Source of the DNA: an uncultured virus (IMG/VR IMGVR_UViG_2061766007_000442)
Taxonomy: Duplodnaviria > Heunggongvirae > Uroviricota > Caudoviricetes
Reading direction: 5' to 3' (one strand)
DNA length: 20,000 bases
Virus record (IMG/VR): IMGVR_UViG_2061766007_000442
Position 1 is the stretch's first letter. Every line of letters begins with the position of its first letter. A model generated the notes under the pieces. That model worked only from the letters and a program-made list of their open reading frames with translations, did not search any database and was not told the DNA's origin. A program made the translations under genes and the position numbers. Shown piece after piece: positions 1-18,917 of the stretch.

Positions 1-1512
1 AAAGATATTTGCGGGTTTACATTAAAAGAAGCTAATGATGCACGAAAGATTTGTGCGAAGAAGCAAATGAATCGTATTGAAGAATTGCATCAAAAAGTTT
101 TAAAGCAAGCGACTTCTCCGAATATCGGCCCTTATATTTGGGAAACCGCGATTAAGCCGCAGATGGGTTATTCATTTAGTTTAATTCATAGTTTGGCATA
201 TAGTTTTGTTGGTTTGCAAACAATTTATCTTGCTACTTATTTTAATCCTGTCTATTGGAATACTGCATGTTTAAGGGTAGATAGTGGACTTGAAGAAGAA
301 GCAAGTACGAACTATGGTAAAATTGCCAAAGCGGTAGGTAATATTATTAATCGTGGTATTGATATGTCATTGATTGATATTAATAAGTCTGGTTATATGT
401 TTGAACCAGATGTAGTTAGTGATAGTATTATTTATGGAATGAAAGCATTAAACGGTGTAGGTGGCGAGATTATTCAACAAATTATTGCAGGTCGTCCATA
501 CGCAAGTTTACAAGACTTTCAAAATAAGGTAAAATGTAATAAGACGGTTATGGTTTCTTTGATTAAGAGCGGAGCATTTGATTCATTCGGTCAAAGAGAA
601 GATATTATGCGGCAGTATATATGGAGTGTTTGTGAACCAAAGAAAAGAATTACACTTCAAAATTTTAATGGTTTAATGGAGAGAGGTTTGATTCCAGAAT
701 CATTAGACTTTCAAAAGAGATTGTTTGTATTTAATAAAGCATTAAAAGCAAATTGTAAGATAGATAAATATTTTAAGTTGCCAGACAATTATTATGAATT
801 TTATGAAGAATTCTTTGATGTTGATTCGGTAAGTATATTTGATGGATTTTTGGTAATAGAACAGACTGTGTGGAAGAAACAGTATGATAAAGGTATGGAT
901 GCCGCCCGCACATATTTTAAACAACATCAGGATGAATTATTGAATAAACTTAATGATAGTTTATTCCAAGAAATGTGGGATAAATATGCAACTGGTAGTT
1001 TGTCAGATTGGGAAATGGATTCATTAGGATTTTATTATCACGACCATCCATTGAAAAATATTGATAAAGCTATGTATAATATTAGTGAATATAATTATTT
1101 ATCCGAAGTGCCAGCGGTTGACTATAAATTTAAGCGTAATGGTATTGATATTCCGATTTTTAAAACTTTAAGAATTGTAGGAACAGTTATTGCAAAAGAT
1201 GATAATAAGTCTAATATTAGTATTCTTACAAATGAAAGTGGAGTAGTAACTGTTAAATTTAGTCGTGATTATTATGCAAAGTATAATCGCCGCATCAGTG
1301 AAGTACAGATAGATGGAACAAAAAAAGTTAAAGAACAGGGATGGTTTACTCGTGGAACTAAAGTTATGTTAAATGGTTTTAGACGAGGAAATATGTTCTT
1401 TACAAAAGCATATAAGAAAACTAATAGTCATCAATTATATAAGATTACTCAAATTAATGATGACGGTACAATTGAATTTACAAATAAACGCTATGGAGAG
1501 GAAGATGAATAA
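1..1512 (+). CDS. dnaE: DNA polymerase III alpha subunit (phage DnaE-like), C-terminal part; 5' end lies outside the window
   Basis: Frame is open from base 1 (KDICGFTLKEANDARKICAKKQ resembles DnaE GFSLGEADLLRRAMGKK). GYSFSLIHSLAYS resembles GYGFNKSHAAAYA. Also contains HhH-like GMKALNGVG, LIKSGAFDSFG, WEMDSLGFYYHDHPL and a C-terminal OB-fold-like region. Ends TAA. All 7 Trp are TGG. Confidence 0.92.
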   Translation, partial: KDICGFTLKEANDARKICAKKQMNRIEELHQKVLKQATSPNIGPYIWETAIKPQMGYSFSLIHSLAYSFVGLQTIYLATYFNPVYWNTACLRVDSGLEEEASTNYGKIAKAVGNIINRGIDMSLIDINKSGYMFEPDVVSDSIIYGMKALNGVGGEIIQQIIAGRPYASLQDFQNKVKCNKTVMVSLIKSGAFDSFGQREDIMRQYIWSVCEPKKRITLQNFNGLMERGLIPESLDFQKRLFVFNKALKANCKIDKYFKLPDNYYEFYEEFFDVDSVSIFDGFLVIEQTVWKKQYDKGMDAARTYFKQHQDELLNKLNDSLFQEMWDKYATGSLSDWEMDSLGFYYHDHPLKNIDKAMYNISEYNYLSEVPAVDYKFKRNGIDIPIFKTLRIVGTVIAKDDNKSNISILTNESGVVTVKFSRDYYAKYNRRISEVQIDGTKKVKEQGWFTRGTKVMLNGFRRGNMFFTKAYKKTNSHQLYKITQINDDGTIEFTNKRYGEEDE

Positions 1513-2122
1513 ACCAATATTAATAGCTATATGCGGCAAGTCCGCCGCAGGTAAGGATAGTCTTGCTAAAGAATTAACAAGAGTATTACTTTACCATAAT
1601 ATTCGTTGTAAGCGATTGATAAGTGATACAACACGTCCTCGACGTATTAATGAAGTGCAAGATATAGATTATCATTTTATTACAGAATATGAATTTAAAC
1701 ATAACATTGCTTTAGAGCGATATATTGAGTTTAGTTATTTTCATCGTTGGTATTATGGTATTAATAAATTTCAGATTCATCCTGACGTTATTAATGTTGG
1801 AGTATTTAATCCAATAGGTATTAGACAATTAGATGAACTACAAAATCTATACAATATTATAGTTGTATATATTGATATGGATTTTAAAGAAAGGATGCGG
1901 CGGTCGATAGCGAGAGAAAATAAATTTAGAATTGAATTTTTAAGACGAGCATTTGCCGACCATCAAGATTTTAATAATATTGAATCTTATATTCAAGATA
2001 GTTTTAGACATAATATTATCTTTAAAAATAGAAAAAATATAGTATTAATGGCTTACTCGATTTATTTTGATATTAGAAATAAACTTGATATAACTAGTGT
2101 GAGCATGGGCAAAAAAGTATAA
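1505..2122 (+). CDS. gmk: Guanylate kinase-like nucleotide kinase
   Basis: ATG at 1505 overlaps the dnaE stop and follows GGAGAGGAAG. P-loop GKSAAGKD, TTRPRRxNExxDxDYHF and WYYG motifs. The ORF-track start at 1373 is unlikely. Confidence 0.85.
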   Translation: MNKPILIAICGKSAAGKDSLAKELTRVLLYHNIRCKRLISDTTRPRRINEVQDIDYHFITEYEFKHNIALERYIEFSYFHRWYYGINKFQIHPDVINVGVFNPIGIRQLDELQNLYNIIVVYIDMDFKERMRRSIARENKFRIEFLRRAFADHQDFNNIESYIQDSFRHNIIFKNRKNIVLMAYSIYFDIRNKLDITSVSMGKKV

Positions 2123-2177
2123 TCTGTATTTTGTGGTTTTTAAATATTATGTTATACAAAAAATACAAAATATAGTG
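2122..2177 (+). promoter_or_regulatory. Candidate tandem NrdR boxes upstream of nrdD
   Basis: TACAAAATATAGTG (2164-2177) matches 12/14 of the CACWAYATMTWGTG core. A weaker ATCTGTATTTTGTG (2122-2135, 10/14) lies 42 bp upstream. Both directly precede an RNR gene. Confidence 0.5.
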
Positions 2178-2185
2178 GGGTGATT

Positions 2186-4339
2186 ATGAGAATTAAAGTT
2201 ATTAAGCGAGACGGTACAAAAGTTAAATATAATCCTGAAAAAATCGCTATCGCTATATCTGGAGCTTTTCAAGATTTAGGTAAAGAATTTGACGATGTGG
2301 TTGTTTTAGAAGATATTGAAGCTGCTATTAAAAATCTACATCAAAAAAATATTGATATAGAGAAAATTCAAGATATTGTAGAAGATGCATTAATTGATAA
2401 TGGATATATTGAAGAGGCTAAGGCTTACATTCGATATAGACACGAGCGTGAACTAATTAGAAAAAAGAAATTAGAACTTAGTGTTACTGAAAAACTACTA
2501 GCCTCTAATGTTCAAAATCAAAATGCTAATGTAGATGAATATTCCTTTGGCGGCCGCAAAGGCGAAGTAGATAATGTTATTATGAAACAATATGCATTAG
2601 AACATATTGTTTCTAAGATGGCTAGAGAGAATCATCTGAATAATGAAATTTATATTCACGATTTAGATTCTTATGCAGTAGGTATGCACAATTGTCTATC
2701 TATTCCTTTTGATGATTTGCTTGCTAATGGTTTTAATACAAGACAAACTGATGTGCGGCCTGCTAATAGTATTAATACAGCTATGCAGCTTGTTGCAGTT
2801 ATCTTTCAGTTACAATCTCTACAACAATTTGGTGGAGTTGCCGCGACGCACATTGATTGGACAATGGTGCCTTATGTGCGGAAGTCCTTCTACAAACATT
2901 TCTTAGACGGATTAAAATATTGCGAAGCTGGTATCTCTGCCAATGTAAATAATGAAATGTCAGTTATGGATGAAAATTATAAAATGCATCCGGCTGCTTA
3001 TAAATATGCAATTGATATGACAGAGAAAGAAACATATCAAGCAGTAGAAGGTATGTATCATAATTTAAATACTTTACAAAGTAGAAGTGGTAATCAACTA
3101 CCTTTTACTTCTATTAATTATGGTACATGCACAAGTCCAGAAGGACGTTTAGTAACTAAGGCTTTGCTTGATGTAAGTATTAAAGGTCTTGGTAAGTTAC
3201 ATAAAACAAGCATCTTCCCGTGTGGAATCTTTCAGTGTATGGAAGGTGTCAACCGCAAACCTGGTGACCCAAATTATGATTTATTTAGACTAGCCCTTAA
3301 ATCAACAGCACAAAGACTATATCCAAATTATGCTAATGTTGATTGGTCTGGTAATGCTGGGTATGATATTAATGACCCCCGCACATATTTTAGTACAATG
3401 GGTTGCCGCACAGCTAACGGTTGGGATATTAATGGTTTTGGACAATTAAAGGATGGCCGTGGGAATATCTGTCCTGTTACTATTATTCTTCCTACTTTGG
3501 CTATGGAAGCTAAAGGGAATGTTGATACGTTTTTTGACCTATTGGATATTAAAATTCAAGAAGCGAAAGACATGCTTATAGAAAGATTTGAATGGATTTG
3601 TAGTCAAGACCCCAAGTCTGCTTCATTTATGTATGAAAATAATACAATGGCAGGATACGTGCCAGAAGAAGGTATTCGTTCAGCTCTTAAGCATGGTACA
3701 ATTGTAATTGGTCAACTTGGTCTAGCAGAAACACTTCAAATTTTAATTGGATGCGACCATACTGAAGAAAAAGGTATGGAATTAGCCAAGAGAATTGAAC
3801 AATTATTTAAAGATAGGTGCGCGCAGTTTAAAGAAGAATATAAATTGAATTTTGGAGTTTACTACACCCCCGCAGAAAATCTTTGTTATACTGCGATGCA
3901 GAAATTTAAAGATAAGTATGGTATTATTGAGAATGTTAGTGATAAAGATTTCTTTACTAATAGTATGCATGTACCAGTATGGAAGAAGATTACGCCTTTT
4001 GAGAAGATTGATATTGAGTCTCAATTAACTGGCTATAGTAGTGCAGGTTGTATTACATATGTAGAACTAGAATCTACAGTTAAACATAATATTGATGCAC
4101 TTGAAAGAATTGTTAATTATGCGATGGATAAAGATATACCTTACTTCGCAATTAATGTTCCAAATGACACATGTTTAGATTGTGGATATTGTGATGAATT
4201 CAATGATGAATGTCCTGTGTGCGGCAGTCACAATATTCAACAGCTTCGCAGAGTTACTGGTTATCTAACAGGTAACTATAAAACTGCTTTTAATCAAGGC
4301 AAACAAAAAGAAGTACAGATGCGAACTAAACATGAGTAG
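2186..4339 (+). CDS. nrdD: Anaerobic (class III) ribonucleoside-triphosphate reductase with N-terminal ATP cone
   Basis: ATP cone (VIKRDGTKVKYNPEKIAIAI), IYIHDLD, NCL, MGCRT, TPAENLC, C-terminal CLDC..CPVC Zn site and glycyl-radical RRVTGYL. ATG at 2186 follows GGGGTG (alternative GTG start at 2180). Ends TAG. Confidence 0.97.
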   Translation: MRIKVIKRDGTKVKYNPEKIAIAISGAFQDLGKEFDDVVVLEDIEAAIKNLHQKNIDIEKIQDIVEDALIDNGYIEEAKAYIRYRHERELIRKKKLELSVTEKLLASNVQNQNANVDEYSFGGRKGEVDNVIMKQYALEHIVSKMARENHLNNEIYIHDLDSYAVGMHNCLSIPFDDLLANGFNTRQTDVRPANSINTAMQLVAVIFQLQSLQQFGGVAATHIDWTMVPYVRKSFYKHFLDGLKYCEAGISANVNNEMSVMDENYKMHPAAYKYAIDMTEKETYQAVEGMYHNLNTLQSRSGNQLPFTSINYGTCTSPEGRLVTKALLDVSIKGLGKLHKTSIFPCGIFQCMEGVNRKPGDPNYDLFRLALKSTAQRLYPNYANVDWSGNAGYDINDPRTYFSTMGCRTANGWDINGFGQLKDGRGNICPVTIILPTLAMEAKGNVDTFFDLLDIKIQEAKDMLIERFEWICSQDPKSASFMYENNTMAGYVPEEGIRSALKHGTIVIGQLGLAETLQILIGCDHTEEKGMELAKRIEQLFKDRCAQFKEEYKLNFGVYYTPAENLCYTAMQKFKDKYGIIENVSDKDFFTNSMHVPVWKKITPFEKIDIESQLTGYSSAGCITYVELESTVKHNIDALERIVNYAMDKDIPYFAINVPNDTCLDCGYCDEFNDECPVCGSHNIQQLRRVTGYLTGNYKTAFNQGKQKEVQMRTKHE

Positions 4340-4345
4340 GTTATT

Positions 4346-4852
4346 ATGAGATATAATGCAATACAAAGATGTGAATATATTAATGGTAATGATATAGGTG
4401 TATCATTATATATCCAAGGATGCTCTATTAGGTGCGAAGGATGTTTTAATCCTGAAACTTGGGATTTTGAGGGCGGACAAGAATTTGATAGTGCAGCTTA
4501 TGCAAAATTAAATGAATTACTTAATAAACCTTATATTACTAGATTTTCTATTCTTGGCGGAGAACCATTAGAAAGATGCAATTGGGATGATTTAAATAAA
4601 CTGTTATGTCAGTTGCAAGAGTCTAAACCAGGACTAAAAATTTGGCTCTATACGGGCTATACCTACGAATTTCTAATGACTCTTATAGACGAATGGCGCA
4701 TCAAATGGCCTAAGTTTAATGATGCTTTTCTTTTAGAATCAATTTTAGAAAAAGTAGATGTATTAGTCGCTGGGCCTTTCATCCAAGAGGAACAAGATAA
4801 ATCATTACCTTTTAGGGGCAGCCGCAATCAAAAAATTATTGAACTAAATTAA
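4346..4852 (+). CDS. nrdG: Anaerobic RNR activating enzyme (radical SAM)
   Basis: GCSIRCEGCFNPETWDF (CxxxCxxC), ILGGEPL, IWLYTGY and FRGSRNQ motifs; immediately follows nrdD. Confidence 0.96.
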   Translation: MRYNAIQRCEYINGNDIGVSLYIQGCSIRCEGCFNPETWDFEGGQEFDSAAYAKLNELLNKPYITRFSILGGEPLERCNWDDLNKLLCQLQESKPGLKIWLYTGYTYEFLMTLIDEWRIKWPKFNDAFLLESILEKVDVLVAGPFIQEEQDKSLPFRGSRNQKIIELN

Positions 4853-4855
4853 AAT

Positions 4856-4889
4856 AACGGGTAGCTATATGCTACCCGTTTTATTATTT
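4856..4889 (+). terminator. Rho-independent terminator after nrdG
   Basis: 10-bp stem AACGGGTAGC / GCTACCCGTT with loop TATAT, followed by T-rich TTATTATTT. Confidence 0.85.
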
Positions 4890-4916
4890 GACAAAATATT
4901 TTTTTCTTGTTATAAT
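4888..4916 (+). promoter_or_regulatory. Consensus sigma70/sigmaA promoter with extended -10
   Basis: TTGACA (4888-4893), 17-bp spacer, TGn-TATAAT (4911-4916), about 30 nt before ATG 4947. Confidence 0.9.
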
Positions 4917-4946: not shown

Positions 4947-5327
4947 ATGTCGAATAAAGTTGTAGTTGGTTCATTATATGAAATGAATCAGCAATTATTT
5001 AAACAAATGGCACTACCTAGCAAGAAAAAAATAGATTTAGATTTTGCTAATATAGGTGCGTGATTCTCTTCGCATAAAGATATAAAATATTATATGCTTT
5101 TATGTAAAGAACGCTCAGATTATACAGTTTTTCATTTTAATGATTTTAATTTTAATAAAGCCGTAGATGAATTAAAAGCTACATTAGAAGAACGTGGCGA
5201 TATTATGGGTATTGATTATATTCATGGCGACGATGTATTCCAATGCTGGGTGCGGGAGCGCGGTGAAGACCCTGATGTATATATGTTTATGTTATTTGAT
5301 GCCAATTGAATGGTAGTTGAAATATAA
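4947..5327 (+). CDS. Phage hypothetical protein, 126 aa (TGA=Trp)
   Basis: ORF-track pieces 4869-5063 and 5094-5309 are in one frame, joined by TGA at 5061 and 5307 (IGA-W-FSSHKDIKYYMLLC...FDAN-W-MVVEI). SD GAAAGG; TAA overlaps the next ATG (TAATG). Confidence 0.8.
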
Positions 5328-5815
5328 TGATAGAACAAAACAAACAATATGGTCATTTAATTGTTTTGTATCCAGAAGATATTAATGAAGGTTCACATCC
5401 TCGTAAAATGTGAACCTGTAAATGTGCTTGCGGAAATGTTATATTGTTAACAGAGTTTGAAATTTTAAATGAACATTGTCAAAGAGCATGTCTTGATAGT
5501 CGTGGAGAAATATGCGCCGCCGATTTCTTTGATGAATTAAATATAGAGTATCAAGCCATGAAACGCTTTGATGATTTTGAATATGCTTTTGATTTTTACC
5601 TGCCCGCATACAATATTGCTATAGAATGTGATGGCGCTCAACATTTTAGAACTAAAAATAGTGAATGAATGTCACAATTTAAATTGCAAGAAATGCGGGA
5701 TAGGGACGATGCTAAGACAAAATATTGTAAAGATCATGGTATTTTGTTATACAGAATTTCATTTTGAGATCATAGTAAATTTGAAGAATTAAGGGAGCGA
5801 TTTAGTTGAAATTAG
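5327..5815 (+). CDS. Zn-ribbon + Vsr/DUF559-like PD-(D/E)XK endonuclease (homing-endonuclease-like), 162 aa (TGA=Trp)
   Basis: YGHLIV...W-TCKCACGN, FDFYLPAYNIAIECDGAQH and RDDAKTKYCKDHGILLYRISF-W. In-frame TGA at 5411, 5666, 5765 and 5807. Ends TAG. Confidence 0.75.
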
Positions 5816-6084
5816 TAGTTTGAGCTTATCCTTTAACAGCTATTAATATACAACTGGTAAATAGTTTTGACCAACCAGTTGATGATGTTCCAATAGAAGA
5901 ACAATCTGTATGGATGGATGATGTAATCCCCACTATTAAAAAGATGATTGACTTGCGGGACGTCGATGAAGTGTGCGTAATAGGACCGGCACAGTTTACA
6001 GAGCGTATTAAAGAAAAAATAGAAATGAATTTTCCAAATCTAGATGTATTTTTAGGAGACACAAATGTTAAAATTTCTAATTAA
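5806..6084 (+). CDS. Hypothetical protein, 92 aa (TTG start, TGA=Trp); missing from the ORF track
   Basis: SD AAGGGAG (5791-5797), TTG start, MKLVV-W-AYPLTAINIQ...VKISN-TAA. One TGA at 5821. Fills the gap between neighbours with short overlaps. Confidence 0.65.
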
Positions 6085-6340
6085 ATCTACAAATGAGGTT
6101 CGTGTTGCAACTAAGGATGAAGCTGACGAACTCCATAAGGAACTAGAAAAAGAAGCGCAGGATAATGGTTACACTCTTGCGGCCTGGTCTGAAATGCACA
6201 AAGATAGAAAAGCCCAAGGTGAAATTGTTGAAGAGTGGATGATTTGTAAATGGACTTTTGTATTTAATGATGCCAAAAATCCTGTAGATGCTTATAATAA
6301 GATTACTTATGATTTTTATAAAGTTGGAGAGCAATTTTAA
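6065..6340 (+). CDS. Phage hypothetical protein, 91 aa
   Basis: SD AGGAG; TAATG coupling to dut; 3 Trp, all TGG. Confidence 0.75.
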   Translation: MLKFLIKSTNEVRVATKDEADELHKELEKEAQDNGYTLAAWSEMHKDRKAQGEIVEEWMICKWTFVFNDAKNPVDAYNKITYDFYKVGEQF

Positions 6341-6888
6341 TGAGTGAAATATTAATGCCTAATGATTTTAATACACCACCTGTAGATTTGTCTATGGGCG
6401 TGCCTTTAGGTGCGGGTGCTCCGCAAATGATTACAGAAGAACAATTAATGGAAATGCTTAATCCCACTTTTGAAATCAGAATTAAGTATCTTGATGGAGC
6501 TACGCCTTTACAAAAAATTGAACAAGGTGATTGGATAGACTTATATACCTATGAAGATGTAGAATTACATGCGGGCGAGCATAGTTATATTAATCTAGGA
6601 GTAGCTATGGAGTTGTCACTAGGGTTTGAAGCAATTGTGGCTCCCCGCAGTTCCACTTTTAAAAAGTGGGGCATTTTACAAGCAAACAGTATTGGTATTA
6701 TAGACCACAGTTATTGCGGCGACGATGATATTTGGAAGTTCTCTGCATATGCAGTAAGAGATACAAGCATCCCCGCAGGTACAAGAATTTGTCAGTTTAG
6801 AATTCAGCAGGTGCAACCCAAGATTAAATTTACTTCTGTTTCTACTCTTGGAAATGCCCAGCGTGGAGGATTTGGTAGTACAGGATAA
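6340..6888 (+). CDS. dut: Trimeric dUTPase with ~40-aa N-terminal extension
   Basis: Motifs DWIDLY, PRSS, GIIDHSYCG, RICQF and RGGFGSTG. Confidence 0.93.
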   Translation: MSEILMPNDFNTPPVDLSMGVPLGAGAPQMITEEQLMEMLNPTFEIRIKYLDGATPLQKIEQGDWIDLYTYEDVELHAGEHSYINLGVAMELSLGFEAIVAPRSSTFKKWGILQANSIGIIDHSYCGDDDIWKFSAYAVRDTSIPAGTRICQFRIQQVQPKIKFTSVSTLGNAQRGGFGSTG

Positions 6889-7654
6889 TGGATTATTTAG
6901 AACATCACATAGTAGATCATTGTAATTTAAAGTGTGCAGGGTGTTCACATTTTAGTTGTTTAGCCGAACCTTGATTTGAAGATATACAGGATTTTACTAG
7001 AGATTTTGATGTATTAGCGCAAAAAACCAATCAAAATGTAGGGTGTATAAGACTTATGGGCGGAGAACCATTATTACATTCTAATTATAAAGAATTTTTA
7101 ATTATTGCTAGACAATTATTTCCATATAGTAATATTCAAATTGTTACAAATGGAATATTATTACCAAAATATCACGATGAATTAGTATCTATATGTAATA
7201 ATAATAATATTCAAATTTGTATTAGTAACTATGGTTTANNNNNNNNNNNNNNNNNNNNNNNNNNNNNNNNNATTTTAAATATAAACGAATAGATGATAAA
7301 AACCATTTATATAATATTTCATTTAATTTACAAGGATGTTTTGATGTTATAGATTCTTTTAATAATTGTGATTTACATATAAATCATTGATATTATTTTC
7401 AATATGGTAGATTTTATCCTTGTTGTATAGCTGCTAATTTACATTATTTTGAACAATATTTTAATATAGAAATGTGTGATTGAGATTTAGAAGAAGTATC
7501 TATATCTATACATAATAATTCTATATTAGAAATAGAACAATTTTTAAATAAATCTATACCATTATGTAAATTTTGTGATACTCGTTCGCGGCCGCATACA
7601 TATAAGCCTTTTTCTGTGACGAAAGGAGATATAAAAGAATGGATATGTCCATAA
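6888..7654 (+). CDS. Radical SAM protein with Cys-rich C-terminal region (TGA=Trp; spans N gap 7239-7271)
   Basis: ATG overlaps the dut stop. HCNLKCAGCSHF (CxxxCxxC), LMGGEPLLH and IVTNG. After the gap (different frame, gap length is an estimate): C..GRFYPCC..PLCKFCD..IKEWICP-TAA. TGA at 6972, 7388 and 7481. Confidence 0.85.
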
Positions 7655-8253
7655 TTGTTCCTTGTCACAATTTAGAATCCTATATTACTCCATTATTAGT
7701 ATCACTAAGATTACAAGATATAGGTAATTATGAGGTAGAAGTAATTTTTGTATGTGATAATTGTAATGATAATACTAAAACCATTATAGAACAATTTAAG
7801 TTTGATTATTTAATAAAACATATAATAGAATGTAATGTTCAATCATGTGGTTTAGCTAGAAATGAAGGTATGAAGATAGCTAAAGGCAAATATATATGAT
7901 TTATTGATGGCGATGATTGAATTATTAATAATCGAGCAATCTTTAAAATTATTAATTTTATGGATGAAACACGATTTAAAGTAATACGTTTTGGATATGA
8001 GTGTCCGCCAACATTTCGATATAAAGGATATTTTTCAATGGTTTGGCAATATGCCTATAGAAAAAATTTTATTAAATATACACCTTTTGTAAAAATGCAA
8101 CCTTCAGAAGATGTAGTATTTCAAAAAAAAGTTGTTAAAAAATTAGGTACTAAAGATATTCCAATGTTAAAAGAAAATTTATATTATTATAATTATATGC
8201 GGCCAGGATCAAATATGTATCAATATAGAAAAACTAGGAAAATAGAGCAATAA
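7639..8253 (+). CDS. Glycosyltransferase family 2 (GT-A), 204 aa (TGA=Trp)
   Basis: SIIVPCHN, ARNEGMKIAKGKYI-W-FIDGDD-W (TGA 7897, 7918), SEDVVF and YYYNYMRPGS. SD AAGGAG. Confidence 0.9.
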
Positions 8254-8745
8254 ATGATATATTTAGCATTAGATCAAGCATTACAAACAACAGGTTGAGC
8301 TATCTTTAATGATGGTCAATTGGTTAATCATGGTCATTTTAGTATTCCCGCTAATAAACCAATAGAACAACGTTTGTTAATGATAATGAAAAAATTATCT
8401 GAACTTGAAAATGAATTTGAATTTGAAAATTTATTTTTTGAGGATATACAGTCCCAACAAAATAAGGAAACATATAAAAAATTAGCATATGTGCAAGCTG
8501 CAATTTTAATTTGATGTTATAATACTGAACATAAATTTACAATTTTATCTCCCAGTCATTGGCGGTCAGTGTTAAAAGATAAGTATAAAATTAGTTTTGG
8601 TAGAGCTCGTGCAGAACAAAAAAAAGCCGCACAAGATTTAGTGCGGCAGCAATTTAATTTTGAAGCTACAGAAGATGAATGTGATGCTATCTGTATAGGA
8701 TTAGCTGGATTAATTGAGAATCAAAAAACCAAATCAGCATTTTAA
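8254..8745 (+). CDS. RuvC-like Holliday junction resolvase, 163 aa (TGA=Trp)
   Basis: YLALDQALQTTG-W-AIF (TGA 8296), FFEDIQ, PSHWR, EQK and EDECDAICIG give the D-E-D-D acidic tetrad. Second TGA at 8512. Ends TAA. Confidence 0.85.
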
Positions 8746-8755: not shown

Positions 8756-8792
8756 AAAAAAATAGCCCCCGTATTAACGGGGGCTTATTTTT
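8756..8792. terminator. Bidirectional Rho-independent terminator between the convergent modules
   Basis: Stem AGCCCCCGT / ACGGGGGCT with loop ATTA, flanked by an A-tract (5') and a T-tract (3'). Confidence 0.9.
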
Positions 8793-8797
8793 ATATC

Positions 8798-9543
8798 TTA
8801 GTATGGTGCCTTTTTCTTNNNNNNNNNNNNNNNNNNNNNNNNNNNNNNNNNNNNNNNNNNNNNNNNNNNNNNNNNNNNNNNNNNNNNNNNNNNNNNNNNN
8901 NNNNNNNNNNNNNNNNNNNNNNNNNNNNNNNNNNNNNNNNNNNNNNNNNNNNNNNNNNNNNNNNNNNNNNNNNNNNNNNNNNNNNNNNNNNNNNNNNNNN
9001 NNNNNNNNNNNNNNNNNNNNNNNNNNNNNNNNNNNNNNNNNNNNNNNNNNNNNNNNNNNNNNNNNNNNNNNNNNNNNNNNNNNNNNNNNNNNNNNNNNNN
9101 NNNNNNNNNNNNNNNNNNNNNNNNNNNNNNNNNNNNNNNNNNNNNNNNNNNNNNNNNNNNNNNNNNNNNNNNNNNNNNNNNNNNNNNNNNNNNNNNNNNN
9201 NNNNNNNNNNNNNNNNNNNNNNNNNNNNNNNNNNNNNNNNNNNNNNNNNNNNNNNNNNNNNNNNNNNNNNNNNNNNNNNNNNNNNNNNNNNNNNNNNNNN
9301 NNNNNNNNNNNNNNNNNNNNNNNNNNNNNNNNNNNNNNNNNNNNNNNNNNNNNNNNNNNNNNNNNNNNNNNNNNNNNNNNNNNNNNNNNNNNNNNNCTTT
9401 CATTTTACGCCATCTGTTGTGCCCTCTAAATAACCTTTACCAGTTTGACCTTGACGGGCATTGGCGCTCATGGTATAGCCGAAGCGACTATCATTACACA
9501 TAGCTTTATGAATTGCGGCAGCAATTTTACCATAATCAGCCAT
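8798..9543 (-). CDS. Endolysin, copy A (N-terminus visible, body hidden in gap 8819-9396, probable end KKKAPY-TAA)
   Basis: MADYGKIAAAIHKAMCNDSRFGYTMSANARQGQTGKGYLEGTTDGVK-W-K is identical in the overlap to the endolysin at 11448-11359. SD AAGGAGAG. Linkage to the 8798 stop is inferred across the gap. Confidence 0.6.
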
Positions 9544-9561
9544 TTACTTCTCTCCTTTTAT

Positions 9562-9834: not shown

Positions 9835-10096
9835 TATCCTCTAACTCCTCTTCTGTCTCCGACATTTCTATATCCTCAACGATTTCGTTGTTATCTTTTG
9901 GACGATATTTTGCTTTACCGATTTTATATAAAGCAAATGTGAGCAATTCACCGCCAAATATTGCCATAAATGCAGTTCAAGCACTATCACTAAATTGTTC
10001 ATATCCATGAATAATATTATATTCAGTTACACCAAAAATAATAAAAGTTGCAACTAATATAAACAATAAAATAATATCGCCTTTATTTATTTGCAT
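9827..10096 (-). CDS. Two-TM lysis-cassette membrane protein with acidic tail, copy A, 89 aa (TGA=Trp)
   Basis: MQINKGDIILLFILVATFIIFGV...SDSA-W-TAFMAIFGGELLTFALYKIG...EEELEDSE-TAG. TGA at 9977-9979. Confidence 0.75.
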
Positions 10097-10099
10097 AAT

Positions 10100-10298
10100 T
10101 TACCCTTCTTGTATAGTTTGTGTAAAAGGTCCTGGATAACCATTTGGAAAATCTAAAGTANNNNNNNNNNNNNNNNNNNNNNNNNNNNNNNAAAGTTTTA
10201 TTTGCATCATAATAAACATTCATTTGTATTTTTGTATTATTTTCTAATAACTCTCCAATATAAATACCATAACCAATAGCGTCTCTACCACTACCTGT
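10100..10298 (-). CDS. 3' fragment of an unidentified gene between gaps (possibly the C-terminus of an alternative tail-fibre gene)
   Basis: TGSGRDAIGYGIYIGELLENNTKIQMNVYYDANKT-[gap]-TLDFPNGYPGPFTQTIQEG-TAA, ending 3 nt before the copy A TM gene. Confidence 0.4.
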
Positions 10299-10308
10299 NN
10301 NNNNNNNN

Positions 10309-11448
10309 GGTAACAGCTTTAACCAAATCACGATATGCGTAATTTACGTCAACATTACCAGAAACACCGGGTACTTTACCCTTACTAGAATATTGTCAAA
10401 TATCTGTATTGACTACTGTAGGTTTAGTTTGCGGCTTACCTGTGTTTGTACCGTACTTAGCAATTCATTTAGTATAACGATTACCAACTACAGATTGTAA
10501 ATTGGCTTTCCATCAACTTTCTGAAGCATAAATACCTGCCCAGAAACCAGCTTTTTCCATAGCATCGCAGAATTTTTTAGCATATTTACCAGCAACTTTT
10601 TCTGTACCAGGTTCTTCACTATCGAAATAAACGGGATAGCTTAATTTGCGACCTCTAAGTAGACGCTTAGCATGAGCAATTTCAGAATTAATTTGTTTAT
10701 CATTCTTAGCATAGCTATATAAATAAACGCCATAAGGAATACCTAAACGCTCACACTCTTTATAGTTGCGCACTCATTGGGCATCATCTTGAGAAGGTAT
10801 ATTATCACCATACCCACAACGAAGAATTGCATGATAACCAGCTTTTTTAACTTGTACCCAGTCAATTTTACCATTATGTTTACTAACATCAATAATTTTA
10901 GCAACAACTTTTGTACCAGCTGTAGAAGTTGTCGTTTTGGTGGGTGTTGTAGTCTTAGCGGGTGTTGTGGTTGTTTTACTATCTAATTTACCATTATAGT
11001 GAATAATATTTTTCCAAGGATAATTGTAGTAACCGTGGACATAGGCTTCACGACCTGTTTGATCACCAACTTTTCCACCATATGCTCCACCTTTTTCATT
11101 AATTGAAAATTCAGAGAGAACATCTGGCTTCTGAGTTTGGCACATTGCAACATGCGCTCCAGCCTTAAGATATAAGTCACCAGGTTCAGCTAAGAAACTC
11201 ATTGGCTTAGCAACAAATAATCCACTTTTAACAAATACCGATTCAATATTACCTGTATAAGTAGCACCATCTAAAGCTTTAGCATATTTTGTGTTAGCTA
11301 AAGCAGCTTTTCATGCGGCAATAACACTACTACTGCAATCATAATCGCCAACTTTAACTTTCCATTTTACGCCATCTGTAGTACCCTCTAGATAACCCTT
11401 ACCAGTTTGACCTTGACGGGCATTGGCGCTCATGGTATAGCCGAAGCG
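10309..11448 (-). CDS. Modular endolysin, copy B: NlpC/P60/CHAP-like Cys peptidase + Thr/Pro linker + GH25 muramidase (TGA=Trp; both ends in gaps)
   Basis: DYDCSSSV..PGDLYL..HVAM peptidase; KTTTTPAKTTTPTKTTT linker; GH25 IIDVSKHNGKIDW, GVYLYSYA, VYFDSEE, W-IAKY, DI-W-QYSSKG and VDVN. Single frame with TGA at 11311, 10774, 10513, 10465 and 10396. Confidence 0.9.
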
Positions 11449-11981: not shown

Positions 11982-12158
11982 AATTTTATATAAAGCAAAT
12001 GTAAGTAATTCACCACCAAATATTGCCATAAAAGCTGTTCATGCACTATCACTAAATTGTTCGTAGCCGTGAATAATATTATACTCTGTAACACCGAATA
12101 TAATAAAAGTAGCAATTAAAATAAAAAGTAAAATAATATCACCTTTATTAATTTGCAT
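11982..12158 (-). CDS. Two-TM lysis-cassette membrane protein, copy B (3' end in gap; TGA=Trp)
   Basis: 58/59 aa identical to copy A over the visible part; TGA conserved at 12039-12041; SD GAAAGGA. Confidence 0.75.
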
Positions 12159-12186: not shown

Positions 12187-14415
12187 TTATATTGATTTGA
12201 CTCAAATAGATGAATGTGGAATTAATAATGTAACTGGTGTATTAGCCTGAATATCTGTAGTCATGCCACCGTAATACTCTATTTTTCCTTTAATATTATA
12301 TAAATTTGTACTATAAATATAATCCATACCTGCTTCTCTAAGATTATTAACGGTATCTGATAATACTAATAAATTATTATTTCATAAATTTTTAGTAGTA
12401 TTAAAAACATAACTATAAGAATTGCCGTTATATAATTTAAGTGTATCTTGTGTATTTCACATTTGATTTGTAATTTGATGATATACTCTAGAGAAATGAT
12501 AAATATTATTACTATTATTATTATATGCTTCCATACTATATGTATATGGTCCTCCATAAGCATCATCTGAATTTAATGTTAATGATAATTCTGCACCCAT
12601 TGCTGGTTGAGAATAAGACGATCCATAAGGAGGTTTAATAGTAAATATACCAAATACACTCAGTATAGAAAAACCTATCATACAAGTACTCTGATTTGGC
12701 AAACTTATGTCGCAAGGAATTGTAAATTGTGTACCAGTAAATTTTTCTTCCAAAGTTAACATATATATATTAGTTAAATTTTCTCAATCTGTTGCTCTGC
12801 TATAGTTATAAAACTCATGCAAAGAAGCAGTAGCTATAATATTACATTCTAATATATTAGTAAAAGGACTTACTTTTCCAGACTTATCAACATTGACATT
12901 AACACTTGCTGTATTCGTAACATTATAATTTCCATTACTTGTAATTGTCATAGTGCCACTAGGTATAACATAATTGGTAGGAATAGGATTAACTATAACA
13001 GTTTCTAAACCATCATAATTACTATCTGCACTAATAGTTTGTGTAATTGTGCTTGGGGTTATTGTTTTAGATTGAAGATTAGGAATCACAGAACCTGAAG
13101 ATGCAGGTTCAACTATAATATTTTGTATAAAAGTATTTGGATCTGTAATTGTAATAACTTGTGTCGTTGTGGAAGGAGTACAAGTTATAGTACATAAATC
13201 TTGATACCCAATAATTGTTGGAATATCATTAATTTGACCTGGACTTATTGTTTCAAAATAACTACGTGCTATTAATTTATCTTGCTCACTATCACCTGAT
13301 TCTGGAAAACTAAAAATAGTCTGAGGATCAGATAATGTTGCTGGTGTTATTGCTGCTAAAGTTATAGAACCAGTTGTTAAACATTTACCTGATACTATTG
13401 TTTGAGCACTAGTAGTAGCAGCAAAAATGCCACCCGCGGCAGTTGGAATTTGAGAAAAAGTAGTTATAGTACCAGATGGAATATACCCTTCTTCGGCAGT
13501 TATTGTTGCTAAAATTTTACCGGTATTACTATTTATTGAAATATCAGGTATAACAGAACCGGTAGGAACATTTATTGTTGCATAGTCTGTTACATCAATA
13601 TTACCACTACTTGTAATTGTCATCGTAGCAGTAGGGCGAACCATATAATTTGTAGGGATAGCATTAACTGTAATAGTTGAAAAACCTCAATATTCTTGAG
13701 GCGCAACAATAGTCTGATTGTCTATTTGAGGTTGTACGATTGTGGTAGTTAATTTATTTTGTATATCAGTATTAGATATAGCTTTAATAGTTACATTTAC
13801 TTTCTCTAATCCATCATAATTCATTGTAGGAACAATTGTTTTTGTTTGTGCTATAAGAGATGGAGTATAAGTAACTGTATGTATTTCTAAATTAGGAGAT
13901 ACATTAACATTTACAGCTGCATAAGTTGTAACATTAATATTATTACCATTATCTGTAATAGACATTGTACCATTAGTTAATTGTGCAGCACTAACAGTTA
14001 CAGAAGAACCTGTTATTGTATTATTTTCAATATATCCTGCGCAATTTGTAACCTTTGGAGTTATTGTAATACTATTATCAATTATTTCTCCTATATTAGC
14101 AACAGGAGTGCCACTTATACCTGTTGGTATTGCTTGCACTGTTACAGATGATAAAGCATCAAAATTAATATCAGGTTCTATTGTTTGTGTTTCAAGAGTC
14201 GGTATAATAGTTTTAGATTGAAATTTTAAATTTTCTGGTAAAACATTAATATCTACATTGGCATATTCTGTAACATTTGTTATTCCATTAGAATCAATTT
14301 CAATAGTACCCGTAGGTACTATATAAGTATATGTTGATTCGCCATCAACTGCGGAGACAGTAATACCTTCAATATTACTATATGTTTGTCCAAAAACATT
14401 AATATCTAAACTCAT
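12187..14415 (-). CDS. Repeat-rich tail fibre / virion accessory protein, 742 aa (TGA=Trp)
   Basis: Three ORF-track pieces are one frame joined by TGA at 13687, 12784, 12457, 12382 and 12202; ends TAA TAA; SD AAGGAG. About four copies of a unit like LQSKTITPST.TQTI.AD.NYDGLE.V.V..IP....P.GTMTITSNG..NVT..A.VNVNV. Confidence 0.75.
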
Positions 14416-14458
14416 TTTGTCTCCTTATTATGAATCTTTAACATATAATTTTATATTT

Positions 14459-16129
14459 TTATAATGCTTTAATAATTTTATTTACTGTTGCATACGGTTG
14501 CATGTTATTATGCGCGTTTCCATTTGCATCCGTGGGATTGCCTGTCGTAGTGGCATTAGCGGTCCCAATTCCATGAGTGTGTCCACCACCTCCACCTGTA
14601 TTCACAACTCTCGTACCAGAAGCAGCATATTTCCCACTCTCTGTCATGAATGCCCAACCGGTTGAGGTTCCTGAACTGTTACGTTCATTTACGCTATGCT
14701 TGTGCGATGGTATTTCGGAAGTGGTTAGCGTATGGCTATCAGTGCTAGTTTTCGATTTCGCATATGTGTGGCTATGGTTCTTTGTAGCAGTTTCTGATGG
14801 GGTAAGAGTATGTGTCTCCGCGCCACCTGTCGAGCCAAGCGTATGGGCAGTTGCATCCGATGCCGTACCGGTACCAGAGCCAATGGCTGTACGCCCGCAT
14901 AAATTAGGTAAATTAAAAGTAGTTGAACCGTCACCATCGCCTCATGGCAAATTATCATTTTCATCTTTTAATATCTCAAATAAATCTGCATAAGTTGTAC
15001 GAGATACTGCGGAACCATCACAAATTAAATATCCTGTTGGTGGAGTAAAACCAGCAAAATCTAATATAGTACCGATAGGTACAAATGAATTGGAAAAACT
15101 ACTGGTTGGATGAAGAGTTCCTAATATATTTCAATCCGTACCATTATATGATCTAGCTAAAGTAGCAGATGTTAATTTAGTTTTATTATCATCCATATGT
15201 ACAGCAAAACTATATGTTACTGATTGTGTTTGTTGACCATATGGAAGTGCTTCTTCTCCATATCAGTTAACTCACATTTGGTCATCAGTATCACTAAAAT
15301 TCATTCTTTTGTCAATATATTCTTTGTTAACTGCATCTGCATCAACGGTTGGAGTTACTACATTATGTATATATGTTCCATTATTCGGACTTTCAATCAC
15401 AACAGAACTGGATGGATTATTAGCTGTAATATTTATTGATGTTGGACTTACACTGATAGTGTTATAAGTATTATTTTGTACATCATTATTATATAAACTA
15501 ATAACTCGTCCACTTTGATCTAATGCAGTTCTATATGCGTAATAATTATTATCATCAAAATAATGTGCATAAGAATATAAACCATCATCATAAAGTAAAT
15601 CATTAGTAGCATAGGTTTGTGGATTAGTAGTTGTAGCTGTTGCACCAATTAAATATATTGTAGATGATGTTGTAGTAGCACCCGCAGTATTTTTTGTATC
15701 TGTATCTGTACCACTAATAGTAATAGTATCTGTTGAAGAATTTGCAGTAACAGTAACACTACCTGTTCCAGTAATAGTTAAAGTATCTTGAACTAAATCT
15801 GCAACTGCGGTTACACCACCTGCACTTACTTTACCAAAAGCATTATAATTAAGACTATTTAAAGCAATAGTAGCTGTGGACATTAGCGAAGCGCCGCTAT
15901 CATTTTGTTTCATTAAATTTAATTGTAAATTTGATCCAGAAACAGATAATACAGGGGTCATTTTTTTTCAATAACCATCACTTCAAAGAATTTTTGTGGT
16001 TTCACCAGCTACAGGAGAAGGAACAAGACCATGTTCTCCGCCAGTAGCAGTTTTAGCACCTACAAAATCTCCATTTAGAATATAGGTATCATCACCATAT
16101 GTAAATTTATCTATAACATGCTCTGCCAT
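14459..16129 (-). CDS. Tail fibre protein with phage tail-collar domain, 556 aa (TGA=Trp)
   Basis: GLVPSPVAGETTKIL-W-SDGY-W; collar PIGTILDFAGFTPPTGYLICDGSAVSRTTYADLF..P-W-GDGDGSTTFNLPNL; HxH motifs; end AHNNMQPYATVNKIIKA. TGA at 15983, 15968, 15272, 15263, 15131 and 14942. Confidence 0.9.
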
Positions 16130-16143
16130 AACCTATATTCTCC

Positions 16144-18118
16144 TTAACTTAATCCATGTGTATGACCATTGTCTGTAATAGTATGAGACTTACCGGTCAC
16201 TACTGTTGTTGTACTAGTATTTTTAATTGGCACTGTTGTCGCGGCAGTTGCTTTAATAGGAACTGTTACATCTGAATTACTTTGAACTGCTGTGACAGTA
16301 AGTGCGGTTCCAAGAGTAGGTGGAGTGTGTACGTGTGAAAAAGCAATATTTAATTGCTTGGTGTCAGTTGTATCCATAGTCATAGTTAAACTAGCACTAC
16401 CACTACCTGCGGCGGTTACATTTGGAATTGAAACTGCAGTAGTTGTAATTTTACTTGCAGTTGTAGTAGATGCTTGAACGCCAGTGACAGATGTTGTTGA
16501 AGATTGAACCCCTGTAATAGTTGTTGTAGTGTGATCTGCGATAGAAATTCCTGTGGTATTAGTGGCTGCTGCGGTTGGTATATTTAAATCAGAACGAGAA
16601 AATATAGTAGTCATAGTACCTTGTTTAGACATTTTCAATGCTTCGGAAACACTATTCCATTGCAAAGTACTATAACCACCATAAGCATAACCCCAGTTTG
16701 TAATATCACTCGCGGTTATGCCTGCCGCGACCGAAGTTGCAAAAATTGGGTCTGTTTCAGTGTATGTAGTTAATACTGTACCTAAATCTACCACACCACT
16801 TGTTGGTGTTTTAGTTGTATTGTTAATCTTAACACTTGTTACCGTACCAATATTGGTAGTGTATCCACTATCATTTGTTAAATGAGAAACTTTAGTAGGA
16901 ACATTAAAATTAGCTGCTCCATTGGTAACAGTAATTTCAGTATGTGCGCCAGCGGTAGTTTTAACTTGTGTAATAGTACCGCCACCTAAACTACCTATAT
17001 CTGCTAAAGTAGCAAATTGACTAGTATCTACACCAGTTCATAATTTAATACCATCACCATCATATCAATAAACGGGATGAATATCATAAAGTTCAATATT
17101 TGTAGCTGAATAAGCCATACCAAGGAAAATATATATTTTTCCATCATTAGTATTTGGTAAAGATTGTACATATCCTTCCATTGTCGCGCTACCATCCGCG
17201 GCAGGCATACATTTTACATATACTGGAGCAGGATATGTTAATGTTAAAGCTGCACCAGTTGTATTAAAACTATATCCAAGGGCAAGAGCATATCTTGACC
17301 AACAAACAGTGGCACCAACATTTGAACCTGCGTTGACGTTGGTTGTGCCACTCATATAAACAATACGTCCAAATGGATCAATAGCATTAGGATTAACAGT
17401 TTTTTTGGAAGTTGCTGNNNNNNNNNNGATACATCCAAATGGATCAATAGCATTAGGATTAACAGTTTTTTTGGAAGTTGCTGAATTATCATAAGTAGTA
17501 TTAGCAGGCACTCATTTAGTATGATCTGCGCTGGTAAAAAGTAAACGATAATAACGCGTACGTGTAATGGTTGGCATTGCTGTTGAATTAGTTCTTAATT
17601 GATAACCAATAGTATTATTATCAGAATTATAACCTCTATAACAAATTCAACAACCACCTTCAACTATATCAGATTCAACATAAGTTAACAACATTGTATA
17701 ATTAATATTAAAAATTGTAGTATCACGAGTAGGTGCAGTTGGTGTTACATCATTACCTGTNNNNNNNNNNCTCAACTATGTCAGATTCAACATAAGTTAA
17801 CAACATTGTATAATTAATATTGAAAATTGTAGTATCACGAGTAGGTGCAGTTGGTGTTACATCATTACCTGTAGCCATATTATTATAAACAGGCTTTGCG
17901 CCAAGACCATTAATATTAATAGTAAATCCTGATGCAGATGTAACAACACCATTACGAAGCATGATAGTTGTTCCGTCTATTAATGTTGTTAGATTTGGTA
18001 TAGTTGCAGTATATGCTGTAGAAGTAGATGTACTATCTACTTCTCCATAAAATATTGCGCTTGCTTGAATATCATGTGGAGTCTCACCGACTTGAATTTG
18101 ATTAATAATATTAGCCAT
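16144..18118 (-). CDS. Tail fibre-like protein (TGA=Trp; crosses two 10-N scaffold joins with duplicated flanks)
   Basis: TININGLGAKPVY, VPTKVSHLTNDSGY, ETDP and terminal GHTH motifs typical of phage fibres. TGA at 17647, 17512, 17065 and 17038. SD AAGGAG. Confidence 0.75.
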
Positions 18119-18128
18119 GCAAAACTCC

Positions 18129-18179
18129 TTATAAATCTCTATTATAGGAGCTTTGTCCTATTTGAAAATTAAAAATCAT
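18129..18179 (-). CDS. Possible 16-aa leader peptide MIFNFQIGQSSYNRDL
   Basis: SD AAGGAG at 18196-18191, ATG 18179; the stop TAA overlaps the SD (TAAGGAG) of the next gene. Confidence 0.3.
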   Translation of the reverse strand: MIFNFQIGQSSYNRDL

Positions 18180-18212
18180 AGTTACATCAGCTCCTTCGAT
18201 ATTTTATATTTA

Positions 18213-18917
18213 CTAATCATAAATGTTTTGAGATATAATAATTTTTTGCTGATCTCAAGTATTTAAACTAGGGTAAGACGGTCTAAATCAAGTAACATTT
18301 TCTAAACAATATTGTAATTGAATATTAAGAACATTGTCATCAATCATTATAAGTCTTAATAGTATTCCCGACGTAGCTGCATATGGTGCATCTCCAAATG
18401 TTATATCAAGATTACTTCTTGATACTGGAGTAAGAATATACACATTATCTTCATTAAATTTTATATTCAAGTAATCGCCATTATATATTGTATTAAACAT
18501 AGTATTATCAGGAGTAGTAAATACATTACTATCAGCATCATGCGCTGTAAATGTATATAAACCTGTCGTATTATCATAAGATTCCATATAAAAAGGACTA
18601 ATAGTTCACATATTTTCATTTACAATAGTTAAACTATTAATAAAATCTTCTAAATAGGTTAATGTTTCAGATGTATTAGTTTTTATTCTGATGGCATCTG
18701 CAATACTTTGCAACTCTTCGCTGGTCGTTCAATATATATTATTAAAATCTTTTGGTCAATTTGCTGGAATATTGTCAGTATGAACGCCAGATAAATGATT
18801 AATAGCACTCACAAAACCATTTGGATAAGTTAGGAGTGCGGAAGTATTACCCTCCGCACGAATAGCATCTGCTAAATATTGTAATTGCGTATCTGTAACT
18901 CAATATTTTACAGTCAT
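18213..18917 (-). CDS. Tail-associated protein with two N-terminal 'ADAIR' repeats, 234 aa (TGA=Trp)
   Basis: Y-W-VTDTQLQYLADAIRAEGNTSALLTYPNGF and Y-W-TTSEELQSIADAIRIKTNTSETLTYLEDF. Six TGA (18900, 18756, 18729, 18606, 18288, 18255) and no TGG. TAATG coupling to the upstream gene; ends TAG TAA. Confidence 0.75.

Follow-up and report, generated by a model that had tools for sequence, protein, structure and literature searches.

Borges et al. (10.1101/2021.08.26.457843) described the 'Agate' phages of animal and human guts, TGA-recoded phages of about 127 kb in which, according to the accessible part of that text, replication genes keep to the standard code while structural and lysis genes are recoded. 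In the same portion of the text, a preference for TGA is reported for a tail gene that flanks the lysis cassette and for a group I intron endonuclease lying within an early gene, the recoding of replication genes is variable in other clades, and a switch from the host code to the phage code during infection is put forward as a hypothesis. Here we analyse TGA usage in a 20-kb stretch of DNA (20,000 nucleotides, hereafter the window) from an uncultured tailed phage (IMG/VR record IMGVR_UViG_2061766007_000442; Caudoviricetes), which is AT-rich (about 30% GC) and in which TGA codons are absent from a set of genes that includes those for DNA synthesis and frequent in tail, lysis and nuclease genes. 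An earlier note, made from the sequence alone, had taken this partition as a sign that the host uses the standard code and that the phage switches code during infection.

We consider it likely that the window belongs to a gut-type tailed phage of about 130 kb that infects a host of Gram-positive type with the standard code and itself reads TGA as tryptophan (Trp), its replication genes being kept TGG-only by selection and its late genes awaiting a tRNA with anticodon UCA, tRNA(UCA). A standard-code host combined with a phage-driven switch is the model already published by Borges et al., as far as the accessible text goes, and the window is a further case of the published recoded-phage pattern. 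The skew is ordinary for this phage group; the unusual part is the build of tRNA(UCA), which lies outside the window.

TGA and TGG codons in the window and its relatives

Read in the standard code, the minus-strand genes of the window fragment; with TGA as a sense codon they resolve into long open reading frames (ORFs), and the share of the window covered by long ORFs rises from 0.62 to 0.88. Matches of the window proteins to Pfam and PHROGs, from which the gene names were taken, run across TGA sites in the endolysin, collar fibre, RuvC, family-2 glycosyltransferase (GT2) and HNH genes. A search of IMG/VR found 31 related loci, and four whole records (G001, G002, G003 and G004) were analysed. 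G001 (130.6 kb), which shares synteny and 70-82% DNA identity with the window, is the closest full relative, and ORF lengths indicate that G001-G003 read TGA as sense, whereas G004 (46% GC) does not. When TGA was masked as X, the residue opposite it in the standard-code G004 was W at 24/38, 24/50 and 20/32 context-filtered sites, F and Y being the next commonest, a profile identical to that of TGG. Moreover, five TGA codons of the window, three of them in the endolysin gene and the others in an endonuclease gene, align to TGG in G004. Judged by these alignments, TGA in the window is a Trp codon. Code 25, in which TGA specifies Gly, was excluded, as no G occurs among the residues aligned to TGA and W, F and Y dominate.

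Six plus-strand genes of the window carry no TGA at all (0/24 in sum; counts are given throughout as TGA/TGG with TGA read as Trp). These are the C-terminal part of the gene for DNA polymerase III alpha (dnaE, 1..1512, truncated by the window edge; PHROG 20695/12219/405, Pfam HHH_6) with 0/7, the guanylate kinase gene gmk (1505..2122; Pfam PF00625, phrog_1815) with a single Trp codon (0/1), the anaerobic ribonucleotide reductase gene nrdD (2180..4339; Pfam NRDD, 7e-152) and the activase gene nrdG (4346..4852; Pfam Fer4_12, phrog_626) with 0/5 each, and the small conserved ORF6065 (6065..6340) and the dUTPase gene dut (6340..6888; Pfam PF00692, phrog_135) with 0/3 each. Four minus-strand tail genes sum to 21/4: one for a protein with internal repeats (12187..14415; 5/0), which is without a family match in Pfam or PHROGs and is called a tail gene from its place in the block; one for a tail fibre with a phage tail collar domain (14459..16129; Pfam PF07484, phrog_9116; 6/1); an ORF at 16144-17775 (4/3), which is probably part of one tail gene spanning 16144..18118 that is listed as two ORFs; and one for a tail-block protein (18213..18917; 6/0) whose ortholog in G001 shows TGA/TGG interchange. 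The endolysin gene (10291..11433, minus strand), encoding an endolysin-like domain and a GH25 muramidase (Pfam PF01183, PF25309, phrog_291), has 5/5, and on the plus strand a homing/HNH-type endonuclease gene (5327..5815; phrog_559 at 7.6e-25, phrog_9084) has 4/0 and a gene for a RuvC-like Holliday junction resolvase (8254..8745; Pfam RuvC, phrog_827) has 2/1. All counts of the earlier note were thus reproduced; its 'Vsr-like' enzyme is indeed a nuclease, although its family is that of the homing/HNH endonucleases.

TGA is also present in ORF4947 (4947..5327, plus strand; 2/1), a conserved gene with no assigned function whose ortholog in G001 has TGA at the same two places, in the small ORF5806 (5806..6084, plus strand; 1/1), in a radical-SAM gene interrupted by a run of N at 7239-7271 (6888..7292, plus strand; Pfam PF04055; 1/0), in ORF7472 (1/1), in the GT2 gene (7639..8253, plus strand; Pfam PF00535, 2.6e-22; 2/1) and in the gene for a small membrane protein (9827..10096, minus strand; 1/0), which is without a family match and is a holin candidate by its place and hydrophobic N-terminus; ORF9562 has no TGA (0/1). 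In total, 13 of the 23 gene models of the window carry at least one TGA, N-broken duplicate copies of the lysis genes (8791-9543 and 11982-12158) being excluded from all counts. The difference between the TGA-free set (0/24) and all other Trp-containing genes (40/15) is large (Fisher p=2.2e-10, for classes drawn after the data had been seen), and a class-free permutation of Trp codons among genes reached the observed heterogeneity in 0/20000 permutations. Composition is not the cause of the gap, because the A-ending share of Lys, Glu, Gln, Leu (TTR) and Arg (AGR) codons is 0.76 in the TGA-free genes, compared with about 0.81 in the rest, which predicts mostly TGA (the probability of 0/24 at p=0.76 is 1.5e-15). 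GC content and third-position GC content (GC3) are likewise similar between the two gene sets. The contention of the earlier note that AT-richness should favour TGA, so that its absence points to selection, is borne out.

Per-gene counts were extended to 34 related loci, over the aligned stretch only and with many of the loci being close kin rather than independent lineages. The DnaE genes have 0 TGA against 268 TGG, or 0/240 in the 30 loci left after removal of four that are TGA-free in all counted genes and probably use the standard code. nrdD (1/52), nrdG (5/57) and ORF6065 (6/41) are nearly as strict, and RuvC (63/22 in 26 loci), ORF4947 (60/37), the HNH endonuclease (14/3) and the endolysin (61/22) are rich in TGA. 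The third base differs in 34-35% of conserved Lys, Glu and Gln codons between the window and G001, G002 and G003, close to the expectation for 76% A, so that synonymous A/G sites appear to be at or near saturation. In the six TGA-free genes, Trp pairs of the same comparisons are nevertheless TGG-TGG in 44/47 cases, while conserved Trp sites of other genes interchange between TGA and TGG (4/13 pairs differ between the window and G001). Because Trp pairs stay TGG-TGG despite synonymous saturation, these comparisons indicate that the absence of TGA from dnaE, nrdD and nrdG is held by selection and not by composition or recent arrival.

We then compared gene classes across the genomes of G001, G002 and G003, using rough gene calls and reciprocal-best orthologues. 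PHROG names cover 82 of the 161 G001 ORFs, those with at least three Trp codons, and the gene caller over-extends some 5' ends (ORF 5243, for example, drops from 8 TGA to 4 with its true start). In G001, G002 and G003, respectively, the replication and nucleotide core has 7/75, 9/74 and 3/74, the tail block 109/54, 34/1 and 8/5, and the homing endonucleases 23/7, 10/1 and 0/3. ORFs with TGA number 93/161, 87/158 and 73/165 (44-58%). The tape measure and the low-copy tail fibres are richest in TGA, the portal gene varies (0/3, 3/0 and 1/2), and a putative tube-sized gene is TGA-free (0/3 and 0/3).

Two further observations concern these genomes. A gene annotated as a sigma factor (phrog_5767, 2.8e-40; G001 7078-8184, plus strand) lies upstream of the packaging and head genes and strongly favours TGA in each of the three relatives (7/2, 9/0 and 6/2); if it drives late transcription, a TGA gate would cover the whole late programme. 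In addition, the nrdD and dnaE genes of G001 (65972-69777 and 70454-75200, minus strand) are each broken into several ORFs by inserted endonuclease-type genes, an HNH gene (phrog_59) in nrdD and a 281-residue ORF with no family assigned between the dnaE parts, and a GIY-YIG-type homing endonuclease interrupts the RecJ-like gene. The inserted endonucleases of G001 are mostly TGA-rich.

A tRNA(UCA) with a second hairpin

The earlier note had called for a search of the rest of the genome for tRNA-Trp(UCA), RF1, tryptophanyl-tRNA synthetase (TrpRS) or an RF2 antagonist. The first of these was found in relatives: aragorn reported a 97-nucleotide (nt) tRNA with anticodon UCA in G002, G003, L021, L022 and L023, copies being located at L019:18170-18266(-), L021:14968-15064(-), L022:20946-21042(-), L023:19889-19985(-) and L086:16722-16818(+), and it adjoins the endolysin gene in G003, L021, L022 and L023. 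All five copies can be folded into a cloverleaf, in which 15/21 pairs show compensatory changes, and the anticodon loop CUUCAAA, the A1-U72 pair and G73-CCA are invariant. TrpRS reads the anticodon, A1-U72 and G73, and we take the A1-U72 and G73 of tRNA(UCA) to be Trp identity elements.

The tRNA(UCA) of the relatives is not an ordinary class I cloverleaf, as a second hairpin follows the anticodon arm: what appears as a long 'variable arm' is a 17-nt hairpin with the 7-nt loop (C/G)UCCAAA, after which come 4 nt and the T arm. The loop of this hairpin is that of tRNA-Trp with anticodon CCA, and the anticodon arm thus looks like the product of a tandem duplication, in which one arm carries UCA and the other CCA. 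A scan of IMG/VR with a 15-nt arm motif gave at least 119 loci; among the matches listed were 58 tRNA(UCA), of which 36 are unique long and 15 unique short forms, and, again among the matches listed, 27 of the 36 unique long forms carry TCCA in the extra hairpin, whereas the other 9 resemble true tRNA-Sec. The label 'SeC' that aragorn assigns to the 97-nt tRNA(UCA) was rejected in view of A1 and G73 and of the Trp-loop hairpin in these 27 long copies. In the literature within reach of our search, which left out most subscription journals, we met with no account of a tRNA that bears an additional hairpin with the cognate anticodon.

G001 at first seemed to lack tRNA(UCA), a view overturned by an intron-split copy (G001 115149-115436, L067:15149-15436, plus strand). 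Its 5' exon (115149-115181) ends in GCGGTCTT, its 3' exon provides CAAAACCGT, the CUCCAAA hairpin, the T arm and TGCCA, and the break falls inside the anticodon loop, so that the UCA anticodon is present only once the RNA is spliced. The insert of about 200 nt matches the Rfam family Intron_gpI along the whole model, with a score of 41.9 bits (E 1.6e-9) that falls short of the gathering score of 50. This split tRNA(UCA) lies about 550 nt downstream of the GH25 endolysin gene and about 45 kb away from the stretch that is syntenic with the window.

Taken together, these features allow a reading that we put forward tentatively and regard as doubtful, in which this lineage switches code by means of a Trp-type tRNA, of a kind that the literature searched does not describe, with two tandem anticodon-like hairpins, the UCA hairpin reading TGA and the CCA hairpin possibly serving as a recognition handle for the TrpRS of the host. 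If so, G001 would have no TGA reader until self-splicing had taken place, a step to which the gate might owe its delay, and the build might represent a general phage route to a changed anticodon. Phage pairs of TrpRS and tRNA(UCA) have been shown to put Trp at UGA, according to the accessible part of the report (PMC12636597). Should the proposed build of tRNA(UCA) hold, the mechanism of the switch becomes directly testable in vitro.

Other RNAs were also seen in the relatives. A tRNA-Ile(UAU) of 91-92 nt (G001 109341-109432 and G002 76023-76113, both plus strand; IMG/VR loci L213-L324) has an extra hairpin whose loop, CAGAU(U/A)A, includes GAU, the anticodon of Ile, and one motif scan found AGAT in the extra arm of 15 of the 25 unique long tRNA(UAU). 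This parallels the Trp case and, under the tentative reading above, would suggest a general way for phages to alter the anticodon and keep aminoacylation. Extra Infernal tRNA matches at G001 107098-107168 and G002 79494-79564, read by eye, have no UCA anticodon. A ROOL RNA match (L067:12384-12985, plus strand, in G001; 347.6 bits against a gathering score of 99.1) adjoins the phage tRNA cluster, and a short match to the tmRNA model (L086:19234-19313, plus strand, in G002; 64 bits against a gathering score of 47) lies within the phage tRNA array and is probably a tRNA-like piece.

Gene order, control and rival explanations

The plus-strand genes of the window overlap or abut. Directly 3' of nrdG lies a terminator-like hairpin (4856..4880, plus strand), and the gap before ORF4947, the first TGA-bearing gene, holds a promoter-like site of host type (4888..4916, plus strand; TTGACA-17-TATAAT with 12/12 matches plus TG), a candidate promoter; both calls are consensus matches, and the total of promoter-like sites is not above that of shuffles. 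Past this site, TGA-bearing genes (ORF4947 and those for the endonuclease, the radical-SAM protein, GT2 and RuvC) and TGA-free genes (ORF6065 and dut) alternate without gaps, and a two-way terminator-like hairpin (8764..8785), again from the consensus scan, separates the converging gene blocks. The packing of TGA-bearing and TGA-free genes into one co-directional block points to control at translation rather than transcription: if the alternating genes share a transcript, translation alone could distinguish them.

The window looks like a metagenomic scaffold, because runs of N are flanked by duplicates (1215 N in eight runs). Gaps of 10 N at 10299-10308, 17418-17427, 17761-17770 and 19415-19424 are each flanked by direct duplicates of 55-116 nt at 98% identity; these four gaps are scaffolding artefacts and split the tail gene at 16144-18118 (repeats D6 and D8) into two listed ORFs (16144-17775 and 17753-18118). 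The last gene, for a fibre-like protein whose 11-residue repeats (33 nt) abound in Thr, Val, Ala and Gly (18917..20000, minus strand), has no Trp codon in its true frame, its listed frame being shifted by a 10-N gap. Diverged copies (87-94%) lie alongside the large N runs at 8819-9396 (578 N) and 11449-11981 (533 N); they represent the starts of two genes, for the holin candidate and for the endolysin, arranged in tandem within 8791-12158. A second copy of the endolysin N-terminus (8791..9543, minus strand; repeat D7, 94%) is interrupted by the first of these runs, and a second copy of the 5' part of the holin-candidate gene (11982..12158, minus strand; repeat D3, 87%) adjoins the other. The segment 8791-12158 is either a genuine duplicated lysis cassette or two strain variants scaffolded serially.

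As for the host, the GH25 muramidase, the 44-58% of ORFs with TGA, the avoidance of TGA in core replication genes and the phage-borne tRNA(UCA) argue for a walled, standard-code bacterium, as we infer. Code-matched phages carry the recoded stop in about 90% of ORFs, and 44-58% is within the range for phages of standard-code hosts, in the accessible text of Borges et al. (10.1101/2021.08.26.457843). Hosts of the nearest named phages are Thomasclavelia, Bacillus and Staphylococcus. Four bins of metagenome-assembled genomes (MAGs) hold related contigs of 55-130 kb, which suggests binned phage DNA rather than prophages, the binning of phage contigs being unreliable.

In the scheme that we favour, core replication and ribonucleotide-reductase genes are kept TGG-only by purifying selection and would be translatable by the unmodified host machinery from the moment of DNA entry. 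TGA is used freely in the genes for tail, lysis, RuvC and homing-endonuclease proteins, which would yield truncated products until the phage-encoded tRNA(UCA) accumulates, control acting at translation rather than transcription. The TGA codons may act as a gate instead of being merely tolerated in genes that are expressed late.

Several results weigh against this scheme. The class rule leaks, as relatives use TGA in gmk (24/40 in 22 loci) and dut (25/51 in 26 loci), and all three exceptions among the 47 Trp pairs are TGG in the window and TGA in G001, in gmk, nrdD and dut. Conversely, TGA is avoided in genes in which free use was expected: the head block has 0/13, 5/10 and 2/10 in G001, G002 and G003, the capsid-like gene (G001 16436-17566, plus strand, and orthologues) has 0/3, 0/5 and 0/4 (0/12 in sum), and the GH25 endolysin of G001 has 1/14, compared with 13/3 in its G003 counterpart. 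The capsid call was made by tblastn, with identities of about 26% to genes that bear the annotation 'major capsid protein' and of 46% to phAss-1, and a Pfam search of the G001 head and tail genes gave no matches. The position of TGA within ORFs shows no consistent 5' enrichment, being flat in G001 and G003; an excess in the first quarter of ORFs in G002 may stem from over-extended starts, and the result counts neither for nor against a gate. The window, with its 1215 N, contains no tRNA, even with a covariance model of the five tRNA(UCA) copies, and no release-factor or TrpRS gene, and five related records likewise hold neither release factors RF1 or RF2 nor TrpRS. The MAG bins bear contradictory labels (Bacillales, Clostridium, Prevotella and Eubacteriales), which were not used as host evidence, and three of them contain a match to the release-factor gene prfB above the cut-off, the fourth none. 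Finally, the related loci do not represent independent lineages.

The functional partition of the earlier note hence stands in part: dnaE, nrdD and nrdG are spared and the tails, RuvC and the endolysin of the window are recoded, but gmk and dut use TGA in relatives, and the RecJ-like exonuclease, the phrog_59 HNH endonuclease, both TGA-poor in relatives, the capsid-like gene and the GH25 endolysin of G001 avoid it. The rule is gene-specific rather than class-specific, with DnaE, NrdD and NrdG strict, gmk and dut free and the capsid-like gene spared, and decoding efficiency therefore probably acts alongside timing.

The main rival explanation replaces timing with the efficiency or accuracy of decoding: the suppressor competes with RF2 and TGA is read worse, so that genes whose products are required at full yield or free of truncated by-products purge TGA, while AT pressure lets tolerant genes acquire it by drift. 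Such selection is at least as good a match as timing for the lack of TGA in the capsid-like gene, for the head block and for the 1/14 of the G001 endolysin. Also in its favour are the TGA-free putative tube-sized gene, the significant deficit of the head block relative to the tails, the wealth of TGA in low-copy fibres and the tape measure, and the variation of gmk and dut between relatives. Yet the replication enzymes, which are not abundant, are the strictest of all (DnaE 0/268), other two-fold codons (A-ending 0.76 versus 0.81) carry no general signature of translational selection, and RuvC and homing endonucleases sit among TGA-free genes and are consistently TGA-rich. As the whole explanation we thus regard decoding efficiency as unlikely, although, because the capsid-like gene is TGA-free, it probably contributes alongside timing.

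We think it still less probable that history rather than selection accounts for the pattern, the TGA-free genes having been recently imported from, or exchanged with, standard-code phages or hosts, or the recoding being too young for drift. Standard-code relatives do occur in the same gene family set (G004, L024, L029 and L030), the nrdD gene of Thomasclavelia phage TR-TP1, counted as standard-code, has 72% DNA identity, and standard-code and TGA-recoded genomes of more than 90% average nucleotide identity are on record in the accessible text of Borges et al. (10.1101/2021.08.26.457843). Against this, the genes are syntenic in all relatives, synonymous sites are saturated while TGG is kept in 44/47 pairs, conserved Trp sites of other genes do interchange, and GC and GC3 are alike in both gene sets; recent acquisition as the sole cause of TGA avoidance, which the earlier note had named as fatal to its case, is thus counted against.

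That TGA means Trp in the host as well (code 4), so that the phage merely shares its code, is barely credible, for although the DNA is AT-rich and no prfB match passes the cut-off in one MAG bin out of four, a shared code gives no reason for the DnaE count and would predict TGA throughout (0/24 in the window core) and in about 90% of ORFs, as in the accessible data on code-matched phages, and the phage encodes a muramidase and holin-type proteins for a walled host, prfB is found in three of the four bins and the relatives carry a tRNA(UCA) of their own. Familiar bacteria with code 4 belong to the wall-less Mollicutes or live as endosymbionts of insects.

Comparison with known systems

Phages of native code-4 and code-25 hosts (Mollicutes and Absconditabacteria, respectively) resemble the lineage of the window in that in-frame TGA specifies an amino acid; almost every gene of such phages contains TGA, about 90% in the code-25 phages by the accessible account, and in code 25 it means Gly, whereas here it means Trp and is excluded from core replication genes. 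A stop-codon-recoded phage with standard-code early genes was reportedly also found by Ivanova in 2014. SPbeta-like phages and the Thomasclavelia phages TR-TP1/TP2 share with this lineage the DnaE-type polymerase and nrdD, with 65-73% DNA identity over parts and a comparable genome length, but differ in having ordinary database annotation and cultured hosts.

The TAG-recoded crAss-like and Lak phages and phAss-1 ('Phassvirus') are similar in that late genes carry the recoded stop, the phages bring suppressor tRNAs and the hosts use the standard code, as described in the accessible parts of PMC10607447 and PMC9523058, and they differ in that TAG is read as Gln where here TGA is read as Trp. Among relatives of phAss-1, the recoding of dUTPase, NrdG and holin differs by genome in the accessible text (PMC10607447), the same leakiness as found here. 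Because its capsid-like gene is 46% identical to that of G001, phAss-1 is, on sequence similarity, a real relative of this lineage.

The window carries no terminase gene, the marker of the tree in which the named Agate genomes stand. The Agate phages, likened here by description, come close in several respects: TGA specifies Trp, replication genes are in the standard code, TGA is enriched in an endonuclease located amid early genes and in a tail gene adjoining the lysis cassette, a suppressor tRNA is present in some genomes and was not found in others, and the same early-to-late switch was proposed, all as far as the accessible text extends. The TGA-free capsid gene, the recoded sigma-factor-like gene and the shape of tRNA(UCA) found here are not mentioned in that text, in whose accessible part 'sigma' and 'capsid' do not occur. 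To the picture of gut phages that keep early genes in the code of the host and late genes in their own, the window thus adds a well-resolved case with evolutionary controls, in which TGA-bearing and TGA-free genes in common packed blocks point to translational control and in which code-aware gene calling is needed, as one third of the proteins on such scaffolds would otherwise be truncated.

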